Sequence record: NC_008515.1
Strand: one strand, 5' to 3'
Origin: Escherichia phage RB32
DNA: 64,000 nt
The notes under the pieces: generated by a model
Databases searched by the model: none
What the model saw: the letters and a program-made list of their open reading frames with translations, nothing else
Told to the model about the DNA's origin: nothing
Made by a program: the position numbers and the translations under genes
Shown: positions 2,395 to 59,474 of the stretch, piece by piece
Layout of the letters: every line of letters starts with the position of its first letter
Numbering within the stretch: position 1 is the stretch's first letter

Positions 2395-2455
2395 TTCTGT
2401 ATCAGTAGTTGATAGTTGTATAGTACCATGGAAGAACAGGGATGTAAACAGTTTT
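2395..2455 (-). promoter_or_regulatory. T4 early-type promoter module (-35 GTTTACA, extended -10 TGGTACTAT) upstream of 2113..2388; related to the repeated modules at 6324-7434
   Basis: Reverse complement reads GTTTACATCCCTGTTCTTCCATGGTACTATAC; shares CAGTAGTTGATAG and TGTAAACA..TTTGTGAAA blocks with the other copies. Confidence 0.4.
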
Positions 2456-2587
2456 GTGAAAAAATTTTTAAAAAGTTTTATGGAATTCTAGGGTCAGGAG
2501 GGACAATTAAAAGGTAGGATAATATATTATAAAGGGTATAAACTAAATGATGCCTAGAGAGACAAGGAAAGGCCTAGATACCAAAAA

Positions 2588-2610
2588 GCCCCAACCTTTC
2601 GGCTGGGGCT
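2588..2610 (-). terminator. Intrinsic terminator downstream of the IP-like gene 2618..3091
   Basis: Minus strand reads AGCCCCAGCCGAAAGGTTGGGGCT followed by TTTTT. Confidence 0.6.
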
Positions 2611-2617
2611 AAGAATG

Positions 2618-3091
2618 TTATTTGATTTGTTTAGCAGACCAAATGCGGTCTTTAATAATTTTTTGGATGTCTTCAACATACTCAAGAGAGTGAGCATGTG
2701 GGTTATCTTTGAAACTATAAGCACGAGCTAACTTTTGACCTTCAGTTTTGATTACTAAAAGCTCTTTAAGGATAGCTTCATATCTGGAGATAATTCCTTT
2801 AACGATATTTTTCTCTTGTGTGACTTTAGGATCTGCTTTAGGAGCAGGTTTACCTGAAGCCTTTGCAAAAGCAGCTCCAGTAGCAACTAAACTTTTCCAA
2901 GCCATACTAACTGCATTCCCTGTAAATCCTTCGGCTTTCATATCACGAGCAAATTGGAATCGTGATTCATCGGAAGCATCTTTATAGGAATATTTACCCG
3001 CGGCAATGGCTGCTTTTGCGACAGCTTGAATTTCGGTGCTAGATGCTTCATTTAACACCGCTTCATTTAAAAATTGAGCATATGATTTCAT
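2618..3091 (-). CDS. Internal-protein-like protein with capsid targeting sequence (MKSYAQFLNEA), 157 aa
   Basis: N-terminus matches the T4 IP capsid-targeting/gp21 cleavage pattern (LNE|A); late promoter upstream; flanked by near-identical hairpins. Confidence 0.65.
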   Translation of the reverse strand: MKSYAQFLNEAVLNEASSTEIQAVAKAAIAAGKYSYKDASDESRFQFARDMKAEGFTGNAVSMAWKSLVATGAAFAKASGKPAPKADPKVTQEKNIVKGIISRYEAILKELLVIKTEGQKLARAYSFKDNPHAHSLEYVEDIQKIIKDRIWSAKQIK

Positions 3092-3127
3092 CTTATTTCC
3101 TGTTTTAATTCGGGGTTTTAATATACT

Positions 3128-3135
3128 TATTTATA
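3128..3135 (-). promoter_or_regulatory. T4 late promoter TATAAATA (minus strand) upstream of IP-like gene
   Basis: Plus strand TATTTATA; about 37 nt upstream of the ATG at 3091. Confidence 0.5.
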
Positions 3136-3141
3136 CTAAAA

Positions 3142-3165
3142 AGCCCCAACCTTTCGGTCGGGGCT
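3142..3165 (-). terminator. Intrinsic terminator at the end of the tRNA/stable-RNA transcription unit
   Basis: Minus strand AGCCCCGACCGAAAGGTTGGGGCT + TTTTT; near-identical to hairpin at 2588-2610. Confidence 0.6.
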
Positions 3166-3214
3166 AAGCCTTGCGGCAACCTTGTCGGGGTTCCACCTGC
3201 TAAGGCAAGTGTTT

Positions 3215-3481
3215 GTACGAAACGCCGGGATTCGAACCCGGTTATTAAGCAGTTGACGCTACTCAATATTTTTAAAAGGCCATATCTCGACCATATCCGA
3301 ACGTTCCGTCAAAAACGCTACTCGGCTTACGGCAAAGATATTTCCTCGAATCGATAATTCGGTGCGCCGTTTCTGCTGTGATGTAAGAGGGCATCAACAA
3401 ATCATAAAGATTTATTAACACAATTCCTTACTCAGGGAACATCAGTCCGACGACTTACCGGTAGCGACCCGGTTTCTTGTT
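3215..3481 (-). ncRNA. Stable small RNA region downstream of tRNA-Arg (positional equivalent of T4 species 1/2 RNAs rnaC/rnaD); boundaries approximate
   Basis: No credible ORF; tRNA-like T-arm CCGGGTTCGAATCCCGG near the 3' end (plus 3226-3245); position matches T4 layout. Confidence 0.35.
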
Positions 3482-3558
<77 letters not shown>

Positions 3559-3561
3559 TAA

Positions 3562-4227
3562 TTAAAATTTCATTTTTCGACCTTTAAACCATCCTTCTGG
3601 AATTGGGTCAGTTTTCTTAATACGTTTAGAAACTTTTTCATCTAATGAATGAATCCACATCATACCAAATTGGGAATTCTTTTCGCCCTGTTGGTGTTTA
3701 TTTCTGGCGTGAGATTCTTTCATTTTATTAATAGTTTCAGGAGTATGATGCTTATTTAAAAATCTGCTATTATTTAAAAATTTTTCCCTGTATTCAGGAG
3801 TTGACCACAAGCGTTTAAATACATTTGAACCATGTTTACGATATTTTTCTTGAAGTAAAATATCATTTTTAAAACGTGACTTAAACGATTTAGCTCCTTT
3901 TAAACTAGCGTCTTTCTTCTGGTTTAGCATCCTAGGAATATTTATATGGTCCCATCCACCTTCACCACCAAGTTTTAAATTATACACATCTGGTCTATTT
4001 AAAAACTCTTCTGTGACAATATTTTTCTCGGCTTCAAGCATAGATTCTTTATCATCAAAATACTCTAATATTTCTTTAGAAAAATTTTCTATACCATATT
4101 TATCTTGGGCTCTTTTTAATAATTTACCAGAACCCATATATCCATCATCTAAATTTTCGGTAGAATGCACACCAATATAAATTTTATTATTAATTTTATT
4201 TGTTATTTTATAAGTGTAATGGAACAT
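3562..4227 (-). CDS. segB: GIY-YIG homing endonuclease SegB, 221 aa
   Basis: N-terminal YKITNKINNKIYIGVHS GIY-YIG motif; sits inside the tRNA cluster as in T4; same length as T4 SegB. Confidence 0.85.
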   Translation of the reverse strand: MFHYTYKITNKINNKIYIGVHSTENLDDGYMGSGKLLKRAQDKYGIENFSKEILEYFDDKESMLEAEKNIVTEEFLNRPDVYNLKLGGEGGWDHINIPRMLNQKKDASLKGAKSFKSRFKNDILLQEKYRKHGSNVFKRLWSTPEYREKFLNNSRFLNKHHTPETINKMKESHARNKHQQGEKNSQFGMMWIHSLDEKVSKRIKKTDPIPEGWFKGRKMKF

Positions 4228-6391: not shown

Positions 6392-6700
6392 CTATTTTAT
6401 TCCGCGTGATGCAATTGTGTTCTGCCGTTTAGCACCAGTTTGTTTAAAATCATGATTGTCGATTTGATCGGTACGAGCAACTCCGAATGATGATTTGATT
6501 TTAGCTTTAGATCCTTTAGTTATAGAAATAAACATCTCGGAAGCCCCTTTCTTAAAGTCCGAGGCGATTACTTCAACGCCGTTCTTAGCAAGTGACTTCA
6601 GAATTGCCTCAGCATACTCATCGTCAAGACTCGCCTGAGTATTAATAACGAATGTCTTTGGCGCAGCCGCTTCATTGATAAATTCTTTAAATGTTTTCAT
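6392..6700 (-). CDS. Internal-protein-like protein with capsid targeting sequence (MKTFKEFINEA), 102 aa
   Basis: N-terminal CTS with (I)NE|A cleavage motif; own early promoter; at the T4 ipI locus position. Confidence 0.7.
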   Translation of the reverse strand: MKTFKEFINEAAAPKTFVINTQASLDDEYAEAILKSLAKNGVEVIASDFKKGASEMFISITKGSKAKIKSSFGVARTDQIDNHDFKQTGAKRQNTIASRGIK

Positions 6701-6761
6701 TTTATTTTCCTAATTAATTTTTGATGAGATAATAGTATCACTACCCTATTTAAAAGTAAAC
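6701..6761 (-). promoter_or_regulatory. Repeated early-promoter module (variant B)
   Basis: -35 GTTTAC and TGATACTAT -10 on minus strand; shares AATAGTATCACTACC core; near-identical copy at 7363-7434. Confidence 0.5.
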
Positions 6762-7034
6762 TCATTTTAAATAAATTGCGTATTTTTTATAACCCGCTGA
6801 CTCATGACGAAGACCCTTATCATTAGCAAAACGCTCAATGTTGTTAATTTGATTCTGATCAAGTTCAGAGATGTCAAACACGAAAAAGTTACGTTTGTTA
6901 CCAACTGTTATATAGTCAGTTAAATCAATATCATATAGGTAATTGATGTCAGCAATCAAAGTCTTGACAGCTTTGCTAATTTTTACTTTTTCGTTAAAAG
7001 CAGCTTCAGAAATAAATTCTTGATACGTTTTCAT
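6762..7034 (-). CDS. Internal-protein-like protein with capsid targeting sequence (MKTYQEFISEA), 90 aa
   Basis: N-terminus almost identical to the canonical T4 IP targeting sequence; ISE|A cleavage motif. Confidence 0.7.
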   Translation of the reverse strand: MKTYQEFISEAAFNEKVKISKAVKTLIADINYLYDIDLTDYITVGNKRNFFVFDISELDQNQINNIERFANDKGLRHESAGYKKYAIYLK

Positions 7035-7104
7035 TTTATTCTCCTCAGTAGTTGATAGGGTAATAGTATCACAGCTAAAACCCTATGTAAACAACTTTGT
7101 GAAA
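7035..7104 (-). promoter_or_regulatory. Repeated early-promoter module (variant A copy)
   Basis: CTCCTCAGTAGTTGATAGGGTAATAGTATCAC ... TGTAAACAACTTTGTGAAATTA repeat. Confidence 0.5.
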
Positions 7105-7362
7105 TTACTTTAAATCTTCTAATCGTTTCTTCATCTTAGAACCATTTTTAGCGATTTCTCCTGCATCGGAGCATAATGCTAAAAGCGCTTTAACTTTAGT
7201 TTGGTCTCCTTTAAAAGATGAAGGATCGACTGCAGCAGCAAGTTCTTTAATACGAGAGAAAAGACGCTCAGCTTCAGCTAAAGCCATTCCAAGCTTTACT
7301 TCCATACCGTGGGAAGATTCAGTGATAGTAGTTTTTGTAGCAAACTCTTTGAAAGTTTTCAT
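7105..7362 (-). CDS. Internal-protein-like protein with capsid targeting sequence (MKTFKEFATK...ITE|S), 85 aa
   Basis: CTS-like N-terminus, own early promoter, adjacent to 57B where T4 carries ipI. Confidence 0.65.
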   Translation of the reverse strand: MKTFKEFATKTTITESSHGMEVKLGMALAEAERLFSRIKELAAAVDPSSFKGDQTKVKALLALCSDAGEIAKNGSKMKKRLEDLK

Positions 7363-8894: not shown

Positions 8895-9425
8895 TTAAAC
8901 TTCTGCTATAATTTTTCCATCTTTTTCTACTTGAAAATAGGTGTAAGGAATCGTTGCAGTACATACTAAAGCCGGGTCTGAATCTTCTGTGTAGCTAAAT
9001 TCTACTTCAGATAGGTCAGAAACCCAAGGCTTATAAAAATTTATTGACATCACTATTTCAGTTTTGCTATTATCTAAGATGTAAAGCGTAATGTACTCAG
9101 GACCTGTTTTTTGGGCAGTATTTTCACCTGTAAGATAGTTGCTAGTTCCTAGCATCCATTCATACATTCCTATCCACGACTTAAGTTCTTCATCAACTAT
9201 AAATCTCACAATGAGTGGATCATACTCAAATGTAACACCTGGACGTTGTGCTCGGCCCAGTCCAAACGGCCCAGTCACGGTATCAGTAACAGGTATTCTA
9301 ATTCCTGGAATAGGAACTGACTGAGCATTTAAAGTAAAAGCAGATGTAGTATTACTATGTGGTATTGATACTACAAAGTTAGTTGTATTTGCTTGGTTAA
9401 AAATTTGTTGCAGAGCTTGCGACAT
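8895..9425 (-). CDS. 3: gp3 tail completion/sheath stabiliser
   Basis: Start taken at internal ATG (MSQALQQ...) with GAGGA SD, giving 176 aa as in T4. Confidence 0.8.
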   Translation of the reverse strand: MSQALQQIFNQANTTNFVVSIPHSNTTSAFTLNAQSVPIPGIRIPVTDTVTGPFGLGRAQRPGVTFEYDPLIVRFIVDEELKSWIGMYEWMLGTSNYLTGENTAQKTGPEYITLYILDNSKTEIVMSINFYKPWVSDLSEVEFSYTEDSDPALVCTATIPYTYFQVEKDGKIIAEV

Positions 9426-9531
9426 ATATTCCTCATAATGCTTTATAACTGTTGGTGGTATAATGGGTCTAAGTCCCTTCCATTCAATTCCATTTAGAAC
9501 AAACAATAGAAAAGAATGGAAGATAATAGAA

Positions 9532-10191
9532 TTAATTTATTAGACTTCTTAAACGAGCAGAAGTCATAAATGGAAATTTTTCTAAAGTTGGCTTTCGCCA
9601 ATATCTTGGATGACAAGTTGATTTAAAATCAAGAACAATTTTCTTTGCTTCATCAATAGTGTTAACTCCAAAGTTATCTAACATTATTTTCTTTTCTTTT
9701 TCCCACCGTTTATTAGCTAAAGCAGATTGAAGCTTTTTGTTTTTAAATGTGTCATTTTTTCTAGAATGAGTTGTTCCTTGTGTCGGACTCCATCCTCTTC
9801 CTAAAATAAATCCCTCAGGAATTATATCTCCATCATGCAATTTTATACATCTTTTACCATTATTATAATATTTTCGTCCAGTTTGTGTATTTGAAATATT
9901 ATTTGCATGTTTTCTTTTTAACCAACCATAAACTTTATTATTTCTCCTAACATATTTAGTTGAAACCGTCATTTTTATGGCTGCATAAGATAATTTTAAA
10001 GAATTTGGGTGTATTTTTACTAATAGCTGATGTGCAACATAATGCTCTTCTGGAGTTAAATCAACCAAGTTAGAAGCATCATTACTACCGCCTAAACATT
10101 TCGGAATAATATGATGTCTTTCTTTATATCCAGTAAGGGCTCTATTGCGAGCCCTATCAATTAGTGAATTATAAATTTTTTCATAATTCAT
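9532..10191 (-). CDS. Freestanding HNH homing endonuclease, about 219 aa
   Basis: HNH/His-Me motif [29 protein letters not shown]; ATG overlaps the gene 2 stop (ATGA); T4 has no gene between 2 and 3 as I recall. Confidence 0.8.
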
Positions 10192-11015
10192 CGTACATTG
10201 CTCCAAACTTTGTTTGCAGAGAAACGTTTTCCTTTGGAGTAGAAGCTTTGGAGTGGCATTAACACAACGTTCGCCCAGTCTTTCGGGGCGATTTCAACAA
10301 GGCTACCCATAATATTACCAGGTATATATGCCTTAATCATTTGGTCTGCACCCCTAAATCCTTTCACTTGACTCCAATCAATTTTTAATTTCGTTTTATT
10401 AGTAATAGTAGGTGTATTTGCATATTGCTTTAAAAGCTCTTCTAGAAACTGTTGACGAGCTTTAGGTGGAATATAGTGCAAGTTTAATCCATACATTAAA
10501 TTATGCTTACCTAAACCAAGGTAAATTATTAAAGGAAATTTATCCCAGTAAGGAAGAGTTTCCTTGTGTTTAGCATCATAAGCAAAAGCATATATTCGTC
10601 CCGGCTGCGGGCGAACAACTTTATGTCCTTTTACTTGCTTAATAGTTTCAGCAAACCATTTTCTGGTTTTATTATTAATTGCTGCACCTTCATTACGAAT
10701 TTTATCGCGCAATGTTTGTCTGAATGAATTTATCATAAGCAGTTGTCTTTCTTGCTTATTGAGCTTATTCATTGGTTTTGATTCAAGCTTTTGAATCTTT
10801 TCAGCCGTTTTAATTCCCGAAGCATATTTTGACATTGCCGAAGTAAACGTAGAGTATTTGATTCCTCTTTCTTCAGCAAATTGCTTTCCTGTCATTCCTT
10901 TTGCTTTGGCCTTTTTATATTCAAGACCTATCTGAATCCATTTCTTTTCGTTTAATGATTGCTTAACCTTTGGAACTTGGGGTGTGCTTTCATTAATTAT
11001 TTGAAAAATAGCCAT
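10188..11015 (-). CDS. 2: gp2 DNA end-protector protein
   Basis: 275-aa ORF at the conserved position between 4 and 3; basic protein. Confidence 0.85.
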
Positions 11016-11478: not shown

Positions 11479-11501
11479 TATAAATAGATAATATATTTAT
11501 A
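11479..11501. promoter_or_regulatory. Divergent late promoters: TATAAATA on plus (11479-11486, gene 53) and on minus (11494-11501, gene 4)
   Basis: Exact T4 late-promoter octamers on both strands between divergent late genes. Confidence 0.55.
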
Positions 11502-28905: not shown

Positions 28906-32043
<3,138 letters not shown>

Positions 32044-36562: not shown

Positions 36563-36987
36563 TGCTTCTGATCCCTGAAACTCATGAATTAGTTCTCGAG
36601 AATGTCGAAGCACTTATTTCTGAAGCACAGGGTCGCTTTGACGAATTGTCTTCTGCTTTAAATAAAGACGATATAAATACAATTGTCGAGAATATGCTTG
36701 ATGATGAAACTGATTTAGCAGTTGCATTAGCTTCTATTAATGAAAACATGCCGTTAAATGAATTCATTGTTAAGCACGTTTCAGCTCGTGGTGAAATTAC
36801 ACGTACTAAAGACCGCAAAACACGTGAACGTAATGCATTTCAAACCACTGGGCTGTCTAAAGCAAAACGTAGACAAATTGCTCGCAAAGCTACCAAAACG
36901 AAGATTGCCAATCCAGCAGGTCAATCTCGTGCTCAGCGTAAGCGTAAAAAAGCTCTTAAACGCCGTAAAGCATTAGGATTAAGCTAA
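36562..36987 (+). CDS. 68: gp68 prohead core protein
   Basis: 141 aa, gene order. Confidence 0.85.
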
Positions 36988-37640
36988 TGAATGAACCCCA
37001 ATTACTAATTGAAACTTGGGGTCAACCTGGCGAAATTATTGATGGTGTGCCAATGCTCGAATCCCACGATGGAAAAGACTTAGGTTTAAAACCGGGTTTA
37101 TACATCGAAGGAATATTCATGCAAGCGGAAGTCGTCAATAGAAATAAACGTCTTTATCCAAAACGCATATTAGAAAAAGCGGTAAAAGACTATATTAATG
37201 AGCAAGTTTTAACTAAACAAGCTCTCGGAGAATTAAATCATCCTCCACGCGCTAATGTTGACCCGATGCAAGCCGCTATCATTATAGAAGATATGTGGTG
37301 GAAAGGAAATGACGTATACGGACGAGCTCGTGTTATTGAAGGTGACCATGGTCCTGGAGATAAATTAGCAGCTAATATTCGTGCCGGATGGATTCCAGGA
37401 GTTTCTTCTCGTGGATTAGGTTCATTGACTGACACAAATAAAGGTTATCGTATCGTAAACGAAGGATTCAAATTAACTGTAGGTGTTGATGCAGTATGGG
37501 GCCCAAGTGCTCCAGATGCATGGGTAACTCCTAAGGAAATTACCGAATCACAGACGGCGGAAGCCGATACAAGTGCCGATGACGCCTATATGGCTCTCGC
37601 AGAGGCCATGAAAAAAAGCGTTATAAATATTATTATCTAA
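36987..37640 (+). CDS. 21: gp21 prohead core protease
   Basis: 217 aa, position between 68 and 22. Confidence 0.9.
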   Translation: MNEPQLLIETWGQPGEIIDGVPMLESHDGKDLGLKPGLYIEGIFMQAEVVNRNKRLYPKRILEKAVKDYINEQVLTKQALGELNHPPRANVDPMQAAIIIEDMWWKGNDVYGRARVIEGDHGPGDKLAANIRAGWIPGVSSRGLGSLTDTNKGYRIVNEGFKLTVGVDAVWGPSAPDAWVTPKEITESQTAEADTSADDAYMALAEAMKKSVINIII

Positions 37641-40050: not shown

Positions 40051-40065
40051 TCTTTGACGATTTAA

Positions 40066-40090
40066 GGGACCTTCGGGTCCCTTTAGTTGT
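40066..40090 (+). terminator. Intrinsic terminator after gene 23
   Basis: GGGACCTTCGGGTCCC hairpin followed by TTTAGTTGTTTTT. Confidence 0.7.
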
Positions 40091-40133
40091 TTTTATGGTA
40101 TAAATAAATCATATAAACCAAAAGGAAAGCGCA

Positions 40134-44850: not shown

Positions 44851-44900
44851 AATATTTCCTCAGTATAAATATAGATATATTTATTACATGGTATTTAGAC

Positions 44901-55319: not shown

Positions 55320-57377
55320 CTACATTTTGAACTTTTTAGACATTCCGTTGATGTTAACCAAAGAAGCTAAGATTTGAGAAACTTCATTTTCCTCTTCTTT
55401 TGATTCTTCTACAAGGAATTGATTAAATCCAGTCATTGGACGAACTTCACCAGTTTCCATTAGATGGTCGCCATCATATACTGATTCCTCTAATTGTTCA
55501 GAAGGAGGAACGATTGTACCTTCGATTAGATACTTGTTATAAGCAGTTTCTTTCATAAAGTACGTACTTACTTTATTAATCTTCAGTAAAATTCCACGCG
55601 GTAGAATAACTTCAGCTTCTGATGGAAATCCTGATAAATGACCTGGAACGATAACTTTGATTCGCTCAGCTCCTTTAATTACCATACCCACGCTAGTTTC
55701 AGCATCTTCATTGGCATATGTAGAATGACTACCCGTATGCATTAAATCTTCTGCATCAACGGAACCTTCTCCTTCACCAGAAAATACTGCGCCGGAATCA
55801 TCTAGAGCCATATAGTTTTTACCATGCTCACCGAAGATATTTGGTTTAAGCGATGTGGATACGAAGTTCTTGAAATAGAACATTTTATTTTCAATGTTAT
55901 GACGCAAAGTTTTAAAGGTAACTTCTTGTCCACGATAAAGCGTAGTTCCTGGAGGAAGAACCGAACCTTTAGCGAATGCAGAATCCAACGTCTCGATGTG
56001 CTTAATGGCACGTTCCATATATTCTTCACGGGTAGAATCTGGTTTACCCAAAAGGAACGAGTTCATTTCAACATATGAATCTGCACAATAATCTTCAATT
56101 ACATCAGATTCAGCTTGAGTTAATCCTTTTGGAGTTACTTCGGTGCTTGCGTATTCATATGCCTGAGCGGCAGATTCATTAATCAATTTATAAATGCCAT
56201 TCATTACAAATTGAATAATAGCTGTCTTTTCATCTGGCGTAGCTTTAGAACCTTTAACCAAATCATTGATAATTTTCTTAATAACATCAAAGCTATTAGA
56301 AATATTAATATCAGCAAGATCGCTTAAAATTTTATCAGTTTTATAATCAAAGAATTCTTTATTCTTTAAATATTCTTGAGAACCTTGATATGTTATATCG
56401 CTCTGCAACTTGATGGATGGATCACGTAAACGTGCATGGGCTAATGCAATATGATTTCGGAAGTTTTCTAGTTCATAATCGCTAGATTTAAAACGAGAAG
56501 CACTCCTCATACCACCGATAGCTCCTTTGCTGAAGTTTGAACCAATCTGAATAACGCCAGAGTTCATTGGTCCTTCTGCTTTATATACCGGAACTTTAGA
56601 TTCAAACTCTTGATATTTCTTAGCAGCGAAGCTATCACCCTGAAGTGAAGCATCAACAGTAGAATATTGAGCTTGTGCTGCTAATCGACGACTAATTTTA
56701 GTTTTCTGAATAACAGCTTGGTCCGTGCGCTTATCATTTTCTAAAGCAATAGAAGCAGCAACAGCGACAGCTTTAGGAACAGCATTACCTGTTTTAACGT
56801 CTACATAAACATCACCAACCTTTGATTCAACTTTTGTGAATAACTCAGTTGAAATAGGAGGTACACCTGGAATGTCTTCTAAATTGGCATTTTTACGGTA
56901 AACCATAATATATGCATACTTTTTATCATAGTCCCAGATTTCCTTTAAAAGAACATATCGACCTGCTCCTTTAGTACGTACTAAACGGTCAGCAATAACT
57001 TGCATTTGACGAGCAGCGCCATTTGTTTTACTTTTTAGTACGCGGAATAGGCATGCGTCAATTTTATACTGCTTCATTGTTTGAAGAGCAGTATCAAAAA
57101 CAGCATTAATGACACCAATTGGATTTCCACCCAAGTTTCTAAGCTTAACCAGCGATAATTTCTCGTTGACACCTATCATTACGATATGCATCATTTTATC
57201 GCCTGGCTTAACGTTTTTATTCGTATCACCACCAGAGGTGTATGTACAAAATCTAAATCCAGGAAGCACGCTTTCTTCGCCGGCTTGAATAGCAAAAATT
57301 TGTGGTATTTTATGCTTAGGATTTAAGTTAACAACCGGCGCCGAAGCGCCGTCAAATAATTCTGTAATAAGTTCCAT
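55320..57377 (-). CDS. Alt-family ADP-ribosyltransferase paralog, 685 aa
   Basis: N-terminal about 230 aa closely parallels the adjacent alt product (MELITELFD..., KIDAC, GRYVLLKE.WDYDKKYAYI); C-terminal ART motifs YRGQ...STS...EAEVILPRG. Confidence 0.8.
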   Translation of the reverse strand: MELITELFDGASAPVVNLNPKHKIPQIFAIQAGEESVLPGFRFCTYTSGGDTNKNVKPGDKMMHIVMIGVNEKLSLVKLRNLGGNPIGVINAVFDTALQTMKQYKIDACLFRVLKSKTNGAARQMQVIADRLVRTKGAGRYVLLKEIWDYDKKYAYIMVYRKNANLEDIPGVPPISTELFTKVESKVGDVYVDVKTGNAVPKAVAVAASIALENDKRTDQAVIQKTKISRRLAAQAQYSTVDASLQGDSFAAKKYQEFESKVPVYKAEGPMNSGVIQIGSNFSKGAIGGMRSASRFKSSDYELENFRNHIALAHARLRDPSIKLQSDITYQGSQEYLKNKEFFDYKTDKILSDLADINISNSFDVIKKIINDLVKGSKATPDEKTAIIQFVMNGIYKLINESAAQAYEYASTEVTPKGLTQAESDVIEDYCADSYVEMNSFLLGKPDSTREEYMERAIKHIETLDSAFAKGSVLPPGTTLYRGQEVTFKTLRHNIENKMFYFKNFVSTSLKPNIFGEHGKNYMALDDSGAVFSGEGEGSVDAEDLMHTGSHSTYANEDAETSVGMVIKGAERIKVIVPGHLSGFPSEAEVILPRGILLKINKVSTYFMKETAYNKYLIEGTIVPPSEQLEESVYDGDHLMETGEVRPMTGFNQFLVEESKEEENEVSQILASLVNINGMSKKFKM

Positions 57378-57380
57378 GAT

Positions 57381-59474
57381 TTATCCTTGAACGAACTTGT
57401 AAGGCATGTTTGTAATATCTATGCAAGACGCAATAATTCCAAGAGATGATTCTACTTTCTGTTTAACATTTGATGAAACAAATGATGCAAAGTCAACTCT
57501 GTCTTCTACTTCAATATCACCTGTCATTGCAACTACTTCGCCGGTTTCCATTAGACAGTCTCCGTCATAAATTACCGATTCGGTGAGTTCTTCTGTGGTC
57601 ATAACTTCAGCTTGAATGAGTTTTGTATTATTAGATGTTGTTCCGTCATTATTAGAAGCATCAGTTATTTTATTAACTTTGACCATCAACCCGCGCGGTA
57701 GAATAACTTCAGCTTCTGTTGCTATTCCGAGACTTCCTGGATATACAACATTAACTTTATGAGCTCCATCAATTGCCCATCCTATTTGAACTTTAACGTA
57801 TTCAGGATTTTCTTTATACGCTCTTATTTCGTTTGGATTAATAGTTATTCCTTCTTCATTTTTATCAACTGTTAATTCGTTACGAGCTTCTGGTTCTAAA
57901 AGACCAATACCAGCATGTGTAATTCCAAAACGTCCAAAAATGATAGGAGTTAAAGAAGTAGATACAAAATTTCTGAAATAGAACACTTTATTTTTAACTA
58001 GTGCTTCGTATATAGGAGCAGTCATACTTTGAGCACGATAAACTGTAATGCCTTCCGGTATGCGGTCACCATTTTCAAAAGCTGAATCTAAATTATTTAT
58101 AGCAGATTCAATTTCTTTTTCACTCATTACATCATATCGTTCTGGATTGTAACGACCTAAAAGAAGATTATTAATGTCTGTATATCCTGAACCACAATAC
58201 TCTCTAATACCGCGCTTTTGTGATGGAGTATATTTAGAACCATCACGGGCAATAGTAATATCAATCATTGGACCAGCACCAATTCCAGAAAAGCTATAAA
58301 TCATTCGTTTGAGGAATTTAGTTTTTGCTGCATTCCAGGCATTTTTAGTTATTTCTCCCCAGACTTCATCTGGTTGCCCTTTACGAGTTTTATTATGTTT
58401 ATCAAGCCAATTATCTTTATATTCTTCAAAGAATTTATTAACAGCTGCTGCGTATTTCTCTAAACATTTTATTGAAGTAGTTGGCTCATTTTTTATCGCG
58501 TTAAAAATTACATCTTTAATTTTTTCGGAAACTTCATCAACCTCACTTTTTGAAAAGAATTTATAGTCATAGTGAAGTTCATTCGCAGTTCCTTCGGCAA
58601 TAATTTTTGCTGCCTTAGTTTTAGAAGCTAATGAATTAATTCCAAGCTTCATTTCTTCTGCTTCGGGAATTAAAGGAGCGGTAGCAGGTTTATTGAAATT
58701 AGCTGCGGTAGATTCATACTTCTGGAATAATTCACTTTCAAACCTAGAAGATTCCAATGATTGACTTTGCGCAATTGCTCTACGGGAAATTTTAACTTTA
58801 ACGATTACAGCTTGGTCAGAACGTTTATCATTTTCTTGCGCAATAGATGCTGCAATTGCCTCATTTTTAGTTACTTGGGCTCCAGTATCTTTATTGATAT
58901 AAACATCACCGACCTTCGATTCAACTTTAGTAAAGAGCTCGGTACTAATTTCCGGAACTCCTGGAATGTCTTCTAGTGATACATTTTTGCGATGTATAAG
59001 AATATATGCATACTTTTTATCATAATCCCAGAGTTCCTTAAGAAGGACGTATCTACCACCTGAACGACTACGGATAAGTCTATCAGCAATAACTTGAATT
59101 TGTCGAGCTTGGCCAGCAGTTTTAGACTTAAGAATACGAAGCATACAAGCATCAATTTTATACTGACGCATCGTTTGCATTGCAACAGTAAAAACTGAAT
59201 TGATATAATTAATTGGGCTTGGACCAAGACCTTTTAATTTAGCAATTGAACCTTTAGCAGTTAATGTAAAAGGAACAATATGCATCATTTTATCGCCCAT
59301 TTTTAAATCGCGATTAGTATCACCTCCAGATGTATAGGTACATAAACGAAAGCCTGGTTGTTCAATTGCATCATCAACATGAACTGAAAAAATTTGCGGT
59401 ATTTTCTTCTTTGGATTTAAGTTTGTAATCGGAAGAGTAGTATCTTCGTCAAATAATTCTGTAATGAGTTCCAT
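57381..59474 (-). CDS. alt: Alt ADP-ribosyltransferase (injected head protein)
   Basis: Near-identical to T4 Alt as recalled (MELITELFDEDTTLPITNL...); R-S-E ART motifs; start taken at second Met. Confidence 0.85.
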   Translation of the reverse strand: MELITELFDEDTTLPITNLNPKKKIPQIFSVHVDDAIEQPGFRLCTYTSGGDTNRDLKMGDKMMHIVPFTLTAKGSIAKLKGLGPSPINYINSVFTVAMQTMRQYKIDACMLRILKSKTAGQARQIQVIADRLIRSRSGGRYVLLKELWDYDKKYAYILIHRKNVSLEDIPGVPEISTELFTKVESKVGDVYINKDTGAQVTKNEAIAASIAQENDKRSDQAVIVKVKISRRAIAQSQSLESSRFESELFQKYESTAANFNKPATAPLIPEAEEMKLGINSLASKTKAAKIIAEGTANELHYDYKFFSKSEVDEVSEKIKDVIFNAIKNEPTTSIKCLEKYAAAVNKFFEEYKDNWLDKHNKTRKGQPDEVWGEITKNAWNAAKTKFLKRMIYSFSGIGAGPMIDITIARDGSKYTPSQKRGIREYCGSGYTDINNLLLGRYNPERYDVMSEKEIESAINNLDSAFENGDRIPEGITVYRAQSMTAPIYEALVKNKVFYFRNFVSTSLTPIIFGRFGITHAGIGLLEPEARNELTVDKNEEGITINPNEIRAYKENPEYVKVQIGWAIDGAHKVNVVYPGSLGIATEAEVILPRGLMVKVNKITDASNNDGTTSNNTKLIQAEVMTTEELTESVIYDGDCLMETGEVVAMTGDIEVEDRVDFASFVSSNVKQKVESSLGIIASCIDITNMPYKFVQG

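Follow-up and report, generated by a model that had tools for sequence, protein, structure and literature searches.

The 219-codon open reading frame (ORF) that lies between gene 2 and gene 3, at positions 9532..10191 of the 64,000-nucleotide stretch analysed here (the window), is probably a free-standing gene for a homing endonuclease of the T4 Mob (HNH) family that homes by the mechanism proposed below. The gene is no discovery in itself: its annotation as an endonuclease is already public in the RB33 record and, though uncharacterised, it belongs to a well-known kind and would not surprise a specialist. Literature searches for RB33, for ORF146c/VR7ORF161c and for "DNA end protector" combined with "homing endonuclease" found no study of the endonuclease gene.

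Position, insertion and distribution of the endonuclease gene

The original prediction had described an HNH-motif ORF of about 219 aa between genes 2 and 3, leaving its strand unmentioned, with an ATG that overlaps the gene 2 stop (ATGA). The ORF was found as described, the quoted motif (...N...EHYVAH) included, and lies on the minus strand, and the overlap was read directly from the sequence. The features of the locus are as follows.

8895..9425, minus strand: gene 3 (tail completion / sheath stabiliser), the host gene on the downstream side (RB33 annotation)
9426..9531, minus strand: 106-nt spacer from the endonuclease stop to the gene 3 start; the same spacer follows the gene 2 stop in T4
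9532..10191, minus strand: endonuclease CDS (RB33_147), 219 aa, ATG at 10191
10188..10191, minus strand: ATGA overlap, in which the endonuclease ATG (10191-10189) shares bases with the gene 2 TGA (10190-10188), as read in the sequence
10188..11015, minus strand: gene 2 (DNA end protector; RB33 annotation), 275 aa, the host gene on the upstream side and the probable target

A 2.3-kb query around the endonuclease gene gave a 100% match to KM607001.1 (Enterobacteria phage RB33), in which the ORF is RB33_147 with the product label "putative site-specific intron-like DNA endonuclease"; the VR7 record carries a remark on similarity to "T4 MobB and RB32 ORF146c". The gene is free-standing, with the gene 2 stop on one side, an unchanged 106-nt spacer on the other, and both genes 2 and 3 intact. 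Its GC content was 29.5%, versus 35-37% in the flanks. A chance ORF can be dismissed, given the match to PHROG 655 "homing endonuclease" (E = 1e-58) and 2933 database homologues at E <= 1e-5.

Over the 64 kb, the sole difference between the window and KM607001.1 was one extra A (A7 versus A6) in the homopolymer at 37611-37617, at the end of gene 21 (ORF 36987..37640, plus strand). With this base, the C-terminus of the gp21 prohead protease reads ...AMKKSVINIII* (217 aa) versus ...AMKKAL* (212 aa) in KM607001.1, and later coordinates are shifted by +1. The extra A is probably a sequencing or version difference.

As stated in the original prediction, T4 (NC_000866) has no ORF at the 2/3 junction, where only a 106-bp spacer separates the gene 3 end (75954) from the gene 2 start (76061). 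Alignment of this junction in RB33, T4, slur04 and CT01 defined an insert of 659 bp relative to T4, located exactly at the gene 2 end, with precise empty sites in T4 and slur04. In the same four-phage alignment, the endonuclease TAA falls where T4 has its gene 2 TAA, and the spacer downstream is almost unchanged.

The distribution was assessed in 499 Tequatrovirus-type records matching the gene 2 3' end. The gene was present, intact or frameshifted, in 35 records and as a remnant in 1, and ~463 were empty, so that ~90-93% of the Tequatrovirus-type relatives lack it. Neither T4 nor most of its relatives, then, carry an orthologue at this site, and the gene is confined to a small minority of phages that are otherwise ~98% identical. 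The encoded protein was >=99% identical over the aligned region in 33 of the 36 Tequatrovirus-type copies. Decayed copies were also found: in Shigella phage CT01 (L008:1733-1906) an internal deletion has left a 174-bp remnant with a 57-aa ORF, in FL23 and FL44 a frameshift divides the gene into two ORFs (FL23, L074:733-1391), and a fragmented copy lies behind a truncated gene 2 in L153:2368-3141. Sporadic presence, clean empty sites and decaying copies together constitute the population signature of a homing endonuclease gene.

More distant homologues occupied the same site. RB33_147 matched 1068 phage records, mostly via its N-terminal module, and the C-terminal ~120 residues were found in only 76 phage records. 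Nine full-length homologues were inspected with their flanks (Citrobacter phage Ursula, Erwinia phage Cronus, Escherichia phages TH55, VR7 and QL01, Serratia phages X20 and SP1, Providencia phage PSTRCR_121 and Acinetobacter phage Morttis). In 9/9 the endonuclease gene lay directly after gene 2 and before gene 3, in 9/9 its start abutted or overlapped the gene 2 stop, and in every inspected case the C-terminal domain was confined to the gene 2/3 site. The homologous ORF encodes 216-225 aa and is full length in the eight annotated loci, and TH55, an unannotated record, aligns over aa 1-218. Between genera, identity to RB33 was 51-65% for the endonuclease, 58-74% for gp2 and 44-61% for gp3. Since endonuclease divergence tracks that of the flanking genes, the gene seems to have been long resident at the 2/3 site rather than to have jumped recently between genera; divergence parallel to the flanks would fit long residence as well as active homing. 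In IMG/VR, a first scan with a single gp2 protein as query yielded no loci with the endonuclease gene, and a second scan with a gp2 alignment as query yielded 77 loci, only 4 of which had an RB33-type endonuclease at the 2/3 junction.

The gene 2/3 junction is also an insertion hot spot in other T4-like phages (L120:2925-3458; L124:2313-3449; L133-L140, ~2440-3520). Inserts there include one unrelated ORF of the HNH type (177 aa, AP2-like tail) and one repeat-containing ORF of 378 aa, and in RB43-like contigs genes 2 and 3 are separated by ~1.1 kb of additional DNA. The divergent 4/53 junction, upstream of gene 4, was the site of another Mob-type HNH gene, similar in the N-terminal module only (46-56%), in TH55, in PSTRCR_121 and in several IMG/VR contigs (L006:546-860; L020:1337-1663; L021:1346-1672; L027:1611-1940; L010:1-245); RB33 and T4 have none at that junction.

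Elsewhere in the window, the mobile endonuclease complement differs from that of T4, as had been proposed from the absence of segD and segE at the 23/24 and inh/uvsW junctions. Both genes are indeed missing, with spacers of 83 nt (23/24, 40051-40133) and 50 nt (inh/uvsW, 44851-44900), and segC is absent together with gene 5.3, so that 5.1 abuts 5.4 (0 nt, 14345/14346). One seg gene is present, in addition to the 2/3 endonuclease.

3562..4227, minus strand: segB, in the tRNA cluster

Two further loci were recorded in the window. The ADP-ribosyltransferase gene alt and a full-length tandem paralogue (alt.-2, hypothetical protein), 41% identical over ~700 aa, occupy 55320..57377 and 57381..59474 on the minus strand. 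The internal-protein locus (6392..7362, minus strand) holds three small genes, Ip7, Ip9 and Ip5, where T4 has the single gene ipI; this locus is a known hypervariable region.

Protein architecture and family membership

Alignment showed that aa ~1-95 of RB33_147 correspond to the conserved HNH module of T4 MobB/C/D/E, with 23 invariant columns that include M1, N2, Y3, Y7, H26, H27, P30, G34, G35, N41, H50 and H54. The Mob-module pattern (MNYxxIY...R...Y.E.HHIIP.C.GG.DD..NLV.LT..EH..AH.LL.KI) is present, and the HNH catalytic His/Asn/His are intact. A profile of the Mob-family alignment searched against the PDB matched the HNH domains of a group II intron maturase (6me0, E = 2e-4) and of McrA (6ghc, E = 9e-4), with E-HHI-P..GG.D..N.V.L....H aligned to both. 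The Pfam HNH models PF01844 and PF14279 scored below their gathering cut-offs (16.5 versus 21.4 bits and 17.8 versus 27.5 bits, respectively), because the Mob branch is too divergent for those models, and NCBIfam gave only a sub-threshold IscB HNH match for RB33_147.

The AlphaFold (AF2) model had a mean pLDDT of 90.8 and contained a beta-beta-alpha core (strands 24-27 and 42-45, helix 47-60; core pLDDT >95), followed by two helices, a beta-hairpin at 106-119, a low-confidence linker at ~130-150 (hairpin and linker together spanning ~aa 105-150) and a four-helix C-terminal domain. This last domain (~aa 150-219, pLDDT 88) is family-specific. Foldseek searches of the full-length AF2 model against the PDB gave HNH domains as top matches, none of them significant, and for the C-terminal domain on its own no match fell below E = 6. 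Pfam NUMOD modules were not found in RB33_147, and PF07460/PF22083 are present in some relatives. By analogy with the modular plan of the family (PMC2988022), the C-terminal domain is predicted to bind DNA.

Judged by alignment, with its intact HNH motif, RB33_147 is a member of the T4 Mob (HNH) family and not an orthologue of any of mobA-E, from which its C-terminal domain and its site differ. Orthology to mobB, the label used in some records, was rejected, as only the N-terminal module aligns. A packaging-associated HNH enzyme was also rejected: the gene is not beside the terminase genes 16/17 (29733-32043, ~20 kb away), and its distribution is sporadic.

The recoded end of gene 2 and expression of the endonuclease gene

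Comparison of RB33 with T4 revealed two tight patches of substitutions, clusters A and B, around an invariant 29-mer near the end of gene 2, with essentially identical sequence beyond them. The features of this region and of the transcription unit are as follows.

10188..10208, minus strand: cluster B, the last gene 2 codons; T4 GTC TGG TCA AAT ATC TAA, RB33 GTT TGG AGC AAT GTA CGA TGA
10201..10204, minus strand: GGAG, putative Shine-Dalgarno (SD) sequence 9 nt upstream of the endonuclease ATG; the sequence was read directly
10207..10235, minus strand: invariant 29-mer AAAGGAAAACGTTTCTCTGCAAACAAAGT, found whether or not an allele has the gene; candidate for the part of the target that binds the protein
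10236..10253, minus strand: cluster A; RB33 CTC CAA AGC TTC TAC TCC (gp2 LQSFYS) versus T4 CTT CAG CAG TTC GTT TCA (LQQFVS)
11494..11501, minus strand: late-promoter consensus TATAAATA upstream of gene 4, the only perfect match upstream of the endonuclease gene on the coding strand

In protein terms, cluster B changes the gp2 end from VWSNI* in T4 to VWSNVR* in RB33. Among the 499 Tequatrovirus-type records, 36 had both clusters, namely the 35 with the gene and the CT01 remnant; ~15 gene-free records had cluster A only, and 448 were of T4 type. Cluster B was thus restricted to records with the endonuclease gene or its remnant. The phages with cluster A but not cluster B, for example vB_SsoM_113 and T4_ev151 (L068, L069), combine LQSFYS with a T4-type gene 2 terminus; they could have arisen by recombination or by precise loss, or could be resistant empty alleles. 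A gp2 end that resembles the RB33 cluster B terminus (...VWRNVR*) was also observed in an IMG/VR T4-like contig that has no endonuclease gene (L150:2419-3303); a 294-aa ORF lies directly behind its gp2, with no match to RB33 gp3 at E <= 1e-3.

Across genera, a variant of the Q-x-F-x-S motif (position 2 being S, N or A, and position 4 Q, Y or H) was found in 8 of 10 gene-carrying genomes versus 11 of 48 distinct gene-free loci (Fisher p = 0.0011, phylogeny not corrected for). At least four, arguably five, within-lineage contrasts agreed with this association (RB33/T4, SP1/L115, VR7/L096, PSTRCR/L141 and Morttis/L112). Exceptions occurred in both directions: in QL01 and the VR25-like L132 the gene occurs together with QQFV/QQFF, and L100, L111 and L121 (SFQ), as well as Sso113, have the variant motif and no gene. 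For MobE, polymorphisms of the carrier genome surround the mapped nick site, and a conserved block has been proposed to bind the C-terminal domain (PMC2790892). By analogy, the T4-type QQFV region may lie at or near the nick or cleavage site, and the invariant block would be a candidate binding site; in view of the exceptions, we offer the nick-site reading of QQFV as a hypothesis. Cluster A is accordingly a candidate for a resistant variant of the cleavage or nick site, for the 5' arm of a hairpin that pairs with the SD sequence, or for both, and the recoded gene 2 ends as a whole suggest a resistant target site, an SD-sequestering hairpin, or the two together.

The same recoding may bear on expression. 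The GGAG owes its existence to the gene 2 Ser codon, AGC in RB33 and TCA in T4; in other genera, the conserved Trp codon and the codon that follows it give similar UGGAG or UGGAA strings. The ATGA overlap suggests that translation of the endonuclease is coupled to that of gene 2. On the coding strand, no TATAAATA was found between the gene 4 promoter and the endonuclease ORF, and a scan for sigma-70 promoters and terminators gave counts at or below shuffle expectation. As the only perfect late promoter upstream is that of gene 4, we infer that the endonuclease gene is co-transcribed late from it, on a 4-2-(endonuclease)-3 message. The T4 gene mobE is likewise a promoterless cassette whose start overlaps the nrdA stop (UAAUGA), and hairpins that sequester the ribosome-binding site (RBS) have been documented for I-TevI, I-TevII, I-TevIII, segB and Aeh1 mobE (PMC2988022).

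Proposed mechanism, alternative explanations and known systems

In the mechanism that we propose, the endonuclease gene is a cassette without a promoter of its own, and its late transcription, together with genes 4 and 2, would start at the gene 4 late promoter. Its translation would be low and would depend on coupling to the termination of gene 2, through the ATGA overlap and the element-made GGAG inside the last gene 2 codons. In a mixed infection with a gene-free phage, the C-terminal domain would bind the conserved 3' end of the rival's gene 2, and the HNH domain would nick or cut in the vicinity, the likeliest place being around the QQFV codons, ~55-65 bp upstream of where the gene is inserted. 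With the carrier genome as template, recombinational repair would then copy in the endonuclease gene together with the recoded gene 2 end, and the carrier genome would be shielded by its own substitutions in clusters A and B. MobA and MobE are reported to nick one strand and to be over-inherited in mixed infections (PMC2988022, PMC2790892), and biased inheritance, which the original prediction had suggested for this region, would be the standard expectation for a Mob family member. A more far-reaching reading, which we advance only tentatively, is that the cassette recodes gene 2, an essential gene, over its last ~22 codons and so achieves three things, namely self-resistance (changes of the QQFV -> QSFY type), supply of the SD sequence (TCA -> AGC) and hiding of that SD sequence by the paired patches, and that this arrangement has been kept at a single site in T4-like phages whose hosts are Escherichia, Serratia, Providencia, Erwinia and Acinetobacter.

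A nuclease kept for its benefit to the phage, either as a weapon against gene 2 of co-infecting relatives or in a DNA-end or packaging role with gp2 and gp4, would account for the intact full-length homologues that share one site in 9 phages with hosts as different as Escherichia, Citrobacter, Erwinia, Serratia, Providencia and Acinetobacter, and for their divergence in parallel with the flanking genes, and beneficial roles have been reported for phage homing endonucleases (PMC11620839, PMC13096335). We nevertheless consider it unlikely, as ~93% of the Tequatrovirus-type records represent phages viable without the gene, phages with frameshifted and deleted copies are viable as well, the terminase genes 16/17 are ~20 kb off, and adjacency is the only sign of a functional tie to gp2. 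Still less probable is a relic, dead as a catalyst or not expressed, that linkage alone maintains. T4 does contain defunct endonuclease genes (the mobA remnant, I-TevIII), and the sub-threshold Pfam HNH scores and the failure to find a dedicated promoter upstream of the endonuclease gene would agree with decay; however, the HNH catalytic positions are all invariant across the family, 33 of the 36 Tequatrovirus-type copies share >=99% protein identity, the ORF is full length (216-225 aa) in eight annotated homologous loci, with TH55 aligning over aa 1-218, and the element has its own putative SD sequence and a start predicted to be coupled to gene 2.

A different alternative concerns a single step of the mechanism. 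Clusters A and B could owe their existence to an RNA hairpin, CUCCAAAGCUU / AAGUUUGGAG, that sequesters the endonuclease SD sequence, rather than to immunity of the target, so that only ribosomes finishing gene 2 would start the endonuclease. The predicted duplex of RB33 cluster A with RB33 cluster B reached -10.3 kcal/mol, versus -4.0, -5.8 and -3.6 kcal/mol for mixed or T4 combinations, and the minimum-free-energy fold of 121 nt paired the two clusters (z = -2.3), but an 86-nt fold was no better than shuffles (z = -0.9) and z was around 0 in most homologues. Pairing of UUCCAG (Phe-Gln) with (U/C)UGGAA (Trp-Lys) is possible in several other genera, and RBS-sequestering hairpins are known in related endonuclease genes (PMC2988022). 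On the other hand, the RNAalifold consensus of 10 upstream regions from gene-carrying genomes comprised 6 pairs at -0.21 kcal/mol, with one covarying pair and a register different from that of RB33, and cluster A occurs apart from cluster B in ~15 gene-free phages. Because the RNAalifold helix is negligible, a conserved regulatory hairpin is treated as not established, and we regard the hairpin in place of immunity as possible but doubtful. The pairing of CUCCAAAGCUU with AAGUUUGGAG is in any case compatible with the immunity reading, and the two are not exclusive.

Taken as a homing endonuclease gene, the element changes no current concept, but it would give the T4 Mob family, which has few characterised members, one further insertion site (the 2/3 junction) and one further C-terminal specificity domain. 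The recoded gene 2 end offers an experimental handle on target recognition and self-protection, and the gene-carrying, empty sensitive-type, empty cluster-A-only and decayed alleles form a natural test set for target recognition, self-protection and low expression. If the three-effect cassette reading were true, the ~15 gene-free cluster-A-only Tequatrovirus-type records would represent naturally resistant empty alleles. Homing further predicts that gene 2-3 markers of RB33-like phages would be over-inherited in crosses or cocktails with gene-free T4-like phages.

Among known systems, T4 MobE resembles RB33_147 in its N-terminal HNH module (39% identity over the alignment, with the common pattern MNY..IY..HHIIP.C.GG.D..NLV.LT..EH..AH), in being free-standing, promoterless and sporadic, in a start that overlaps the stop of the upstream essential gene, and in the polymorphism of carrier genomes near the presumed target. 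However, MobE has 141 aa with a short, unrelated C-terminal part, lies between nrdA and nrdB and targets nrdB, and its nicking and preferential inheritance have been demonstrated experimentally (PMC2790892), whereas for RB33_147 both are predictions. T4 MobB, MobC and MobD, themselves uncharacterised (Table 1, PMC2988022), share the N-terminal module at 33%, 28% and 33% identity over the alignment, respectively, but their C-terminal halves are unalignable with RB33_147 and their sites are different (alpha-gt/alpha-gt.2, nrdG/nrdD and nrdC.11/mobD.1, respectively). The RB33-type gene is nonetheless labelled "mobB" in the CAM-21 record and "similar to MobB" in the VR7 record. The closest N-terminal module (68-69% over aa 1-94) belongs to the rpbA/gene 46 endonuclease of other Tequatroviruses (e.g. 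teqhad KMC25_gp068), which has a different C-terminal half, lies at a different site and is oriented differently relative to its neighbours. A shared N-terminal module with differing C-terminal halves indicates one catalytic module shuffled onto different DNA-binding modules. I-HmuI, the intron-encoded HNH nicking endonuclease of SPO1 (PDB 1U3E), consists of an HNH domain, an extended linker and DNA-binding modules and nicks in a strand-specific manner, and the same general plan would be expected for RB33_147.
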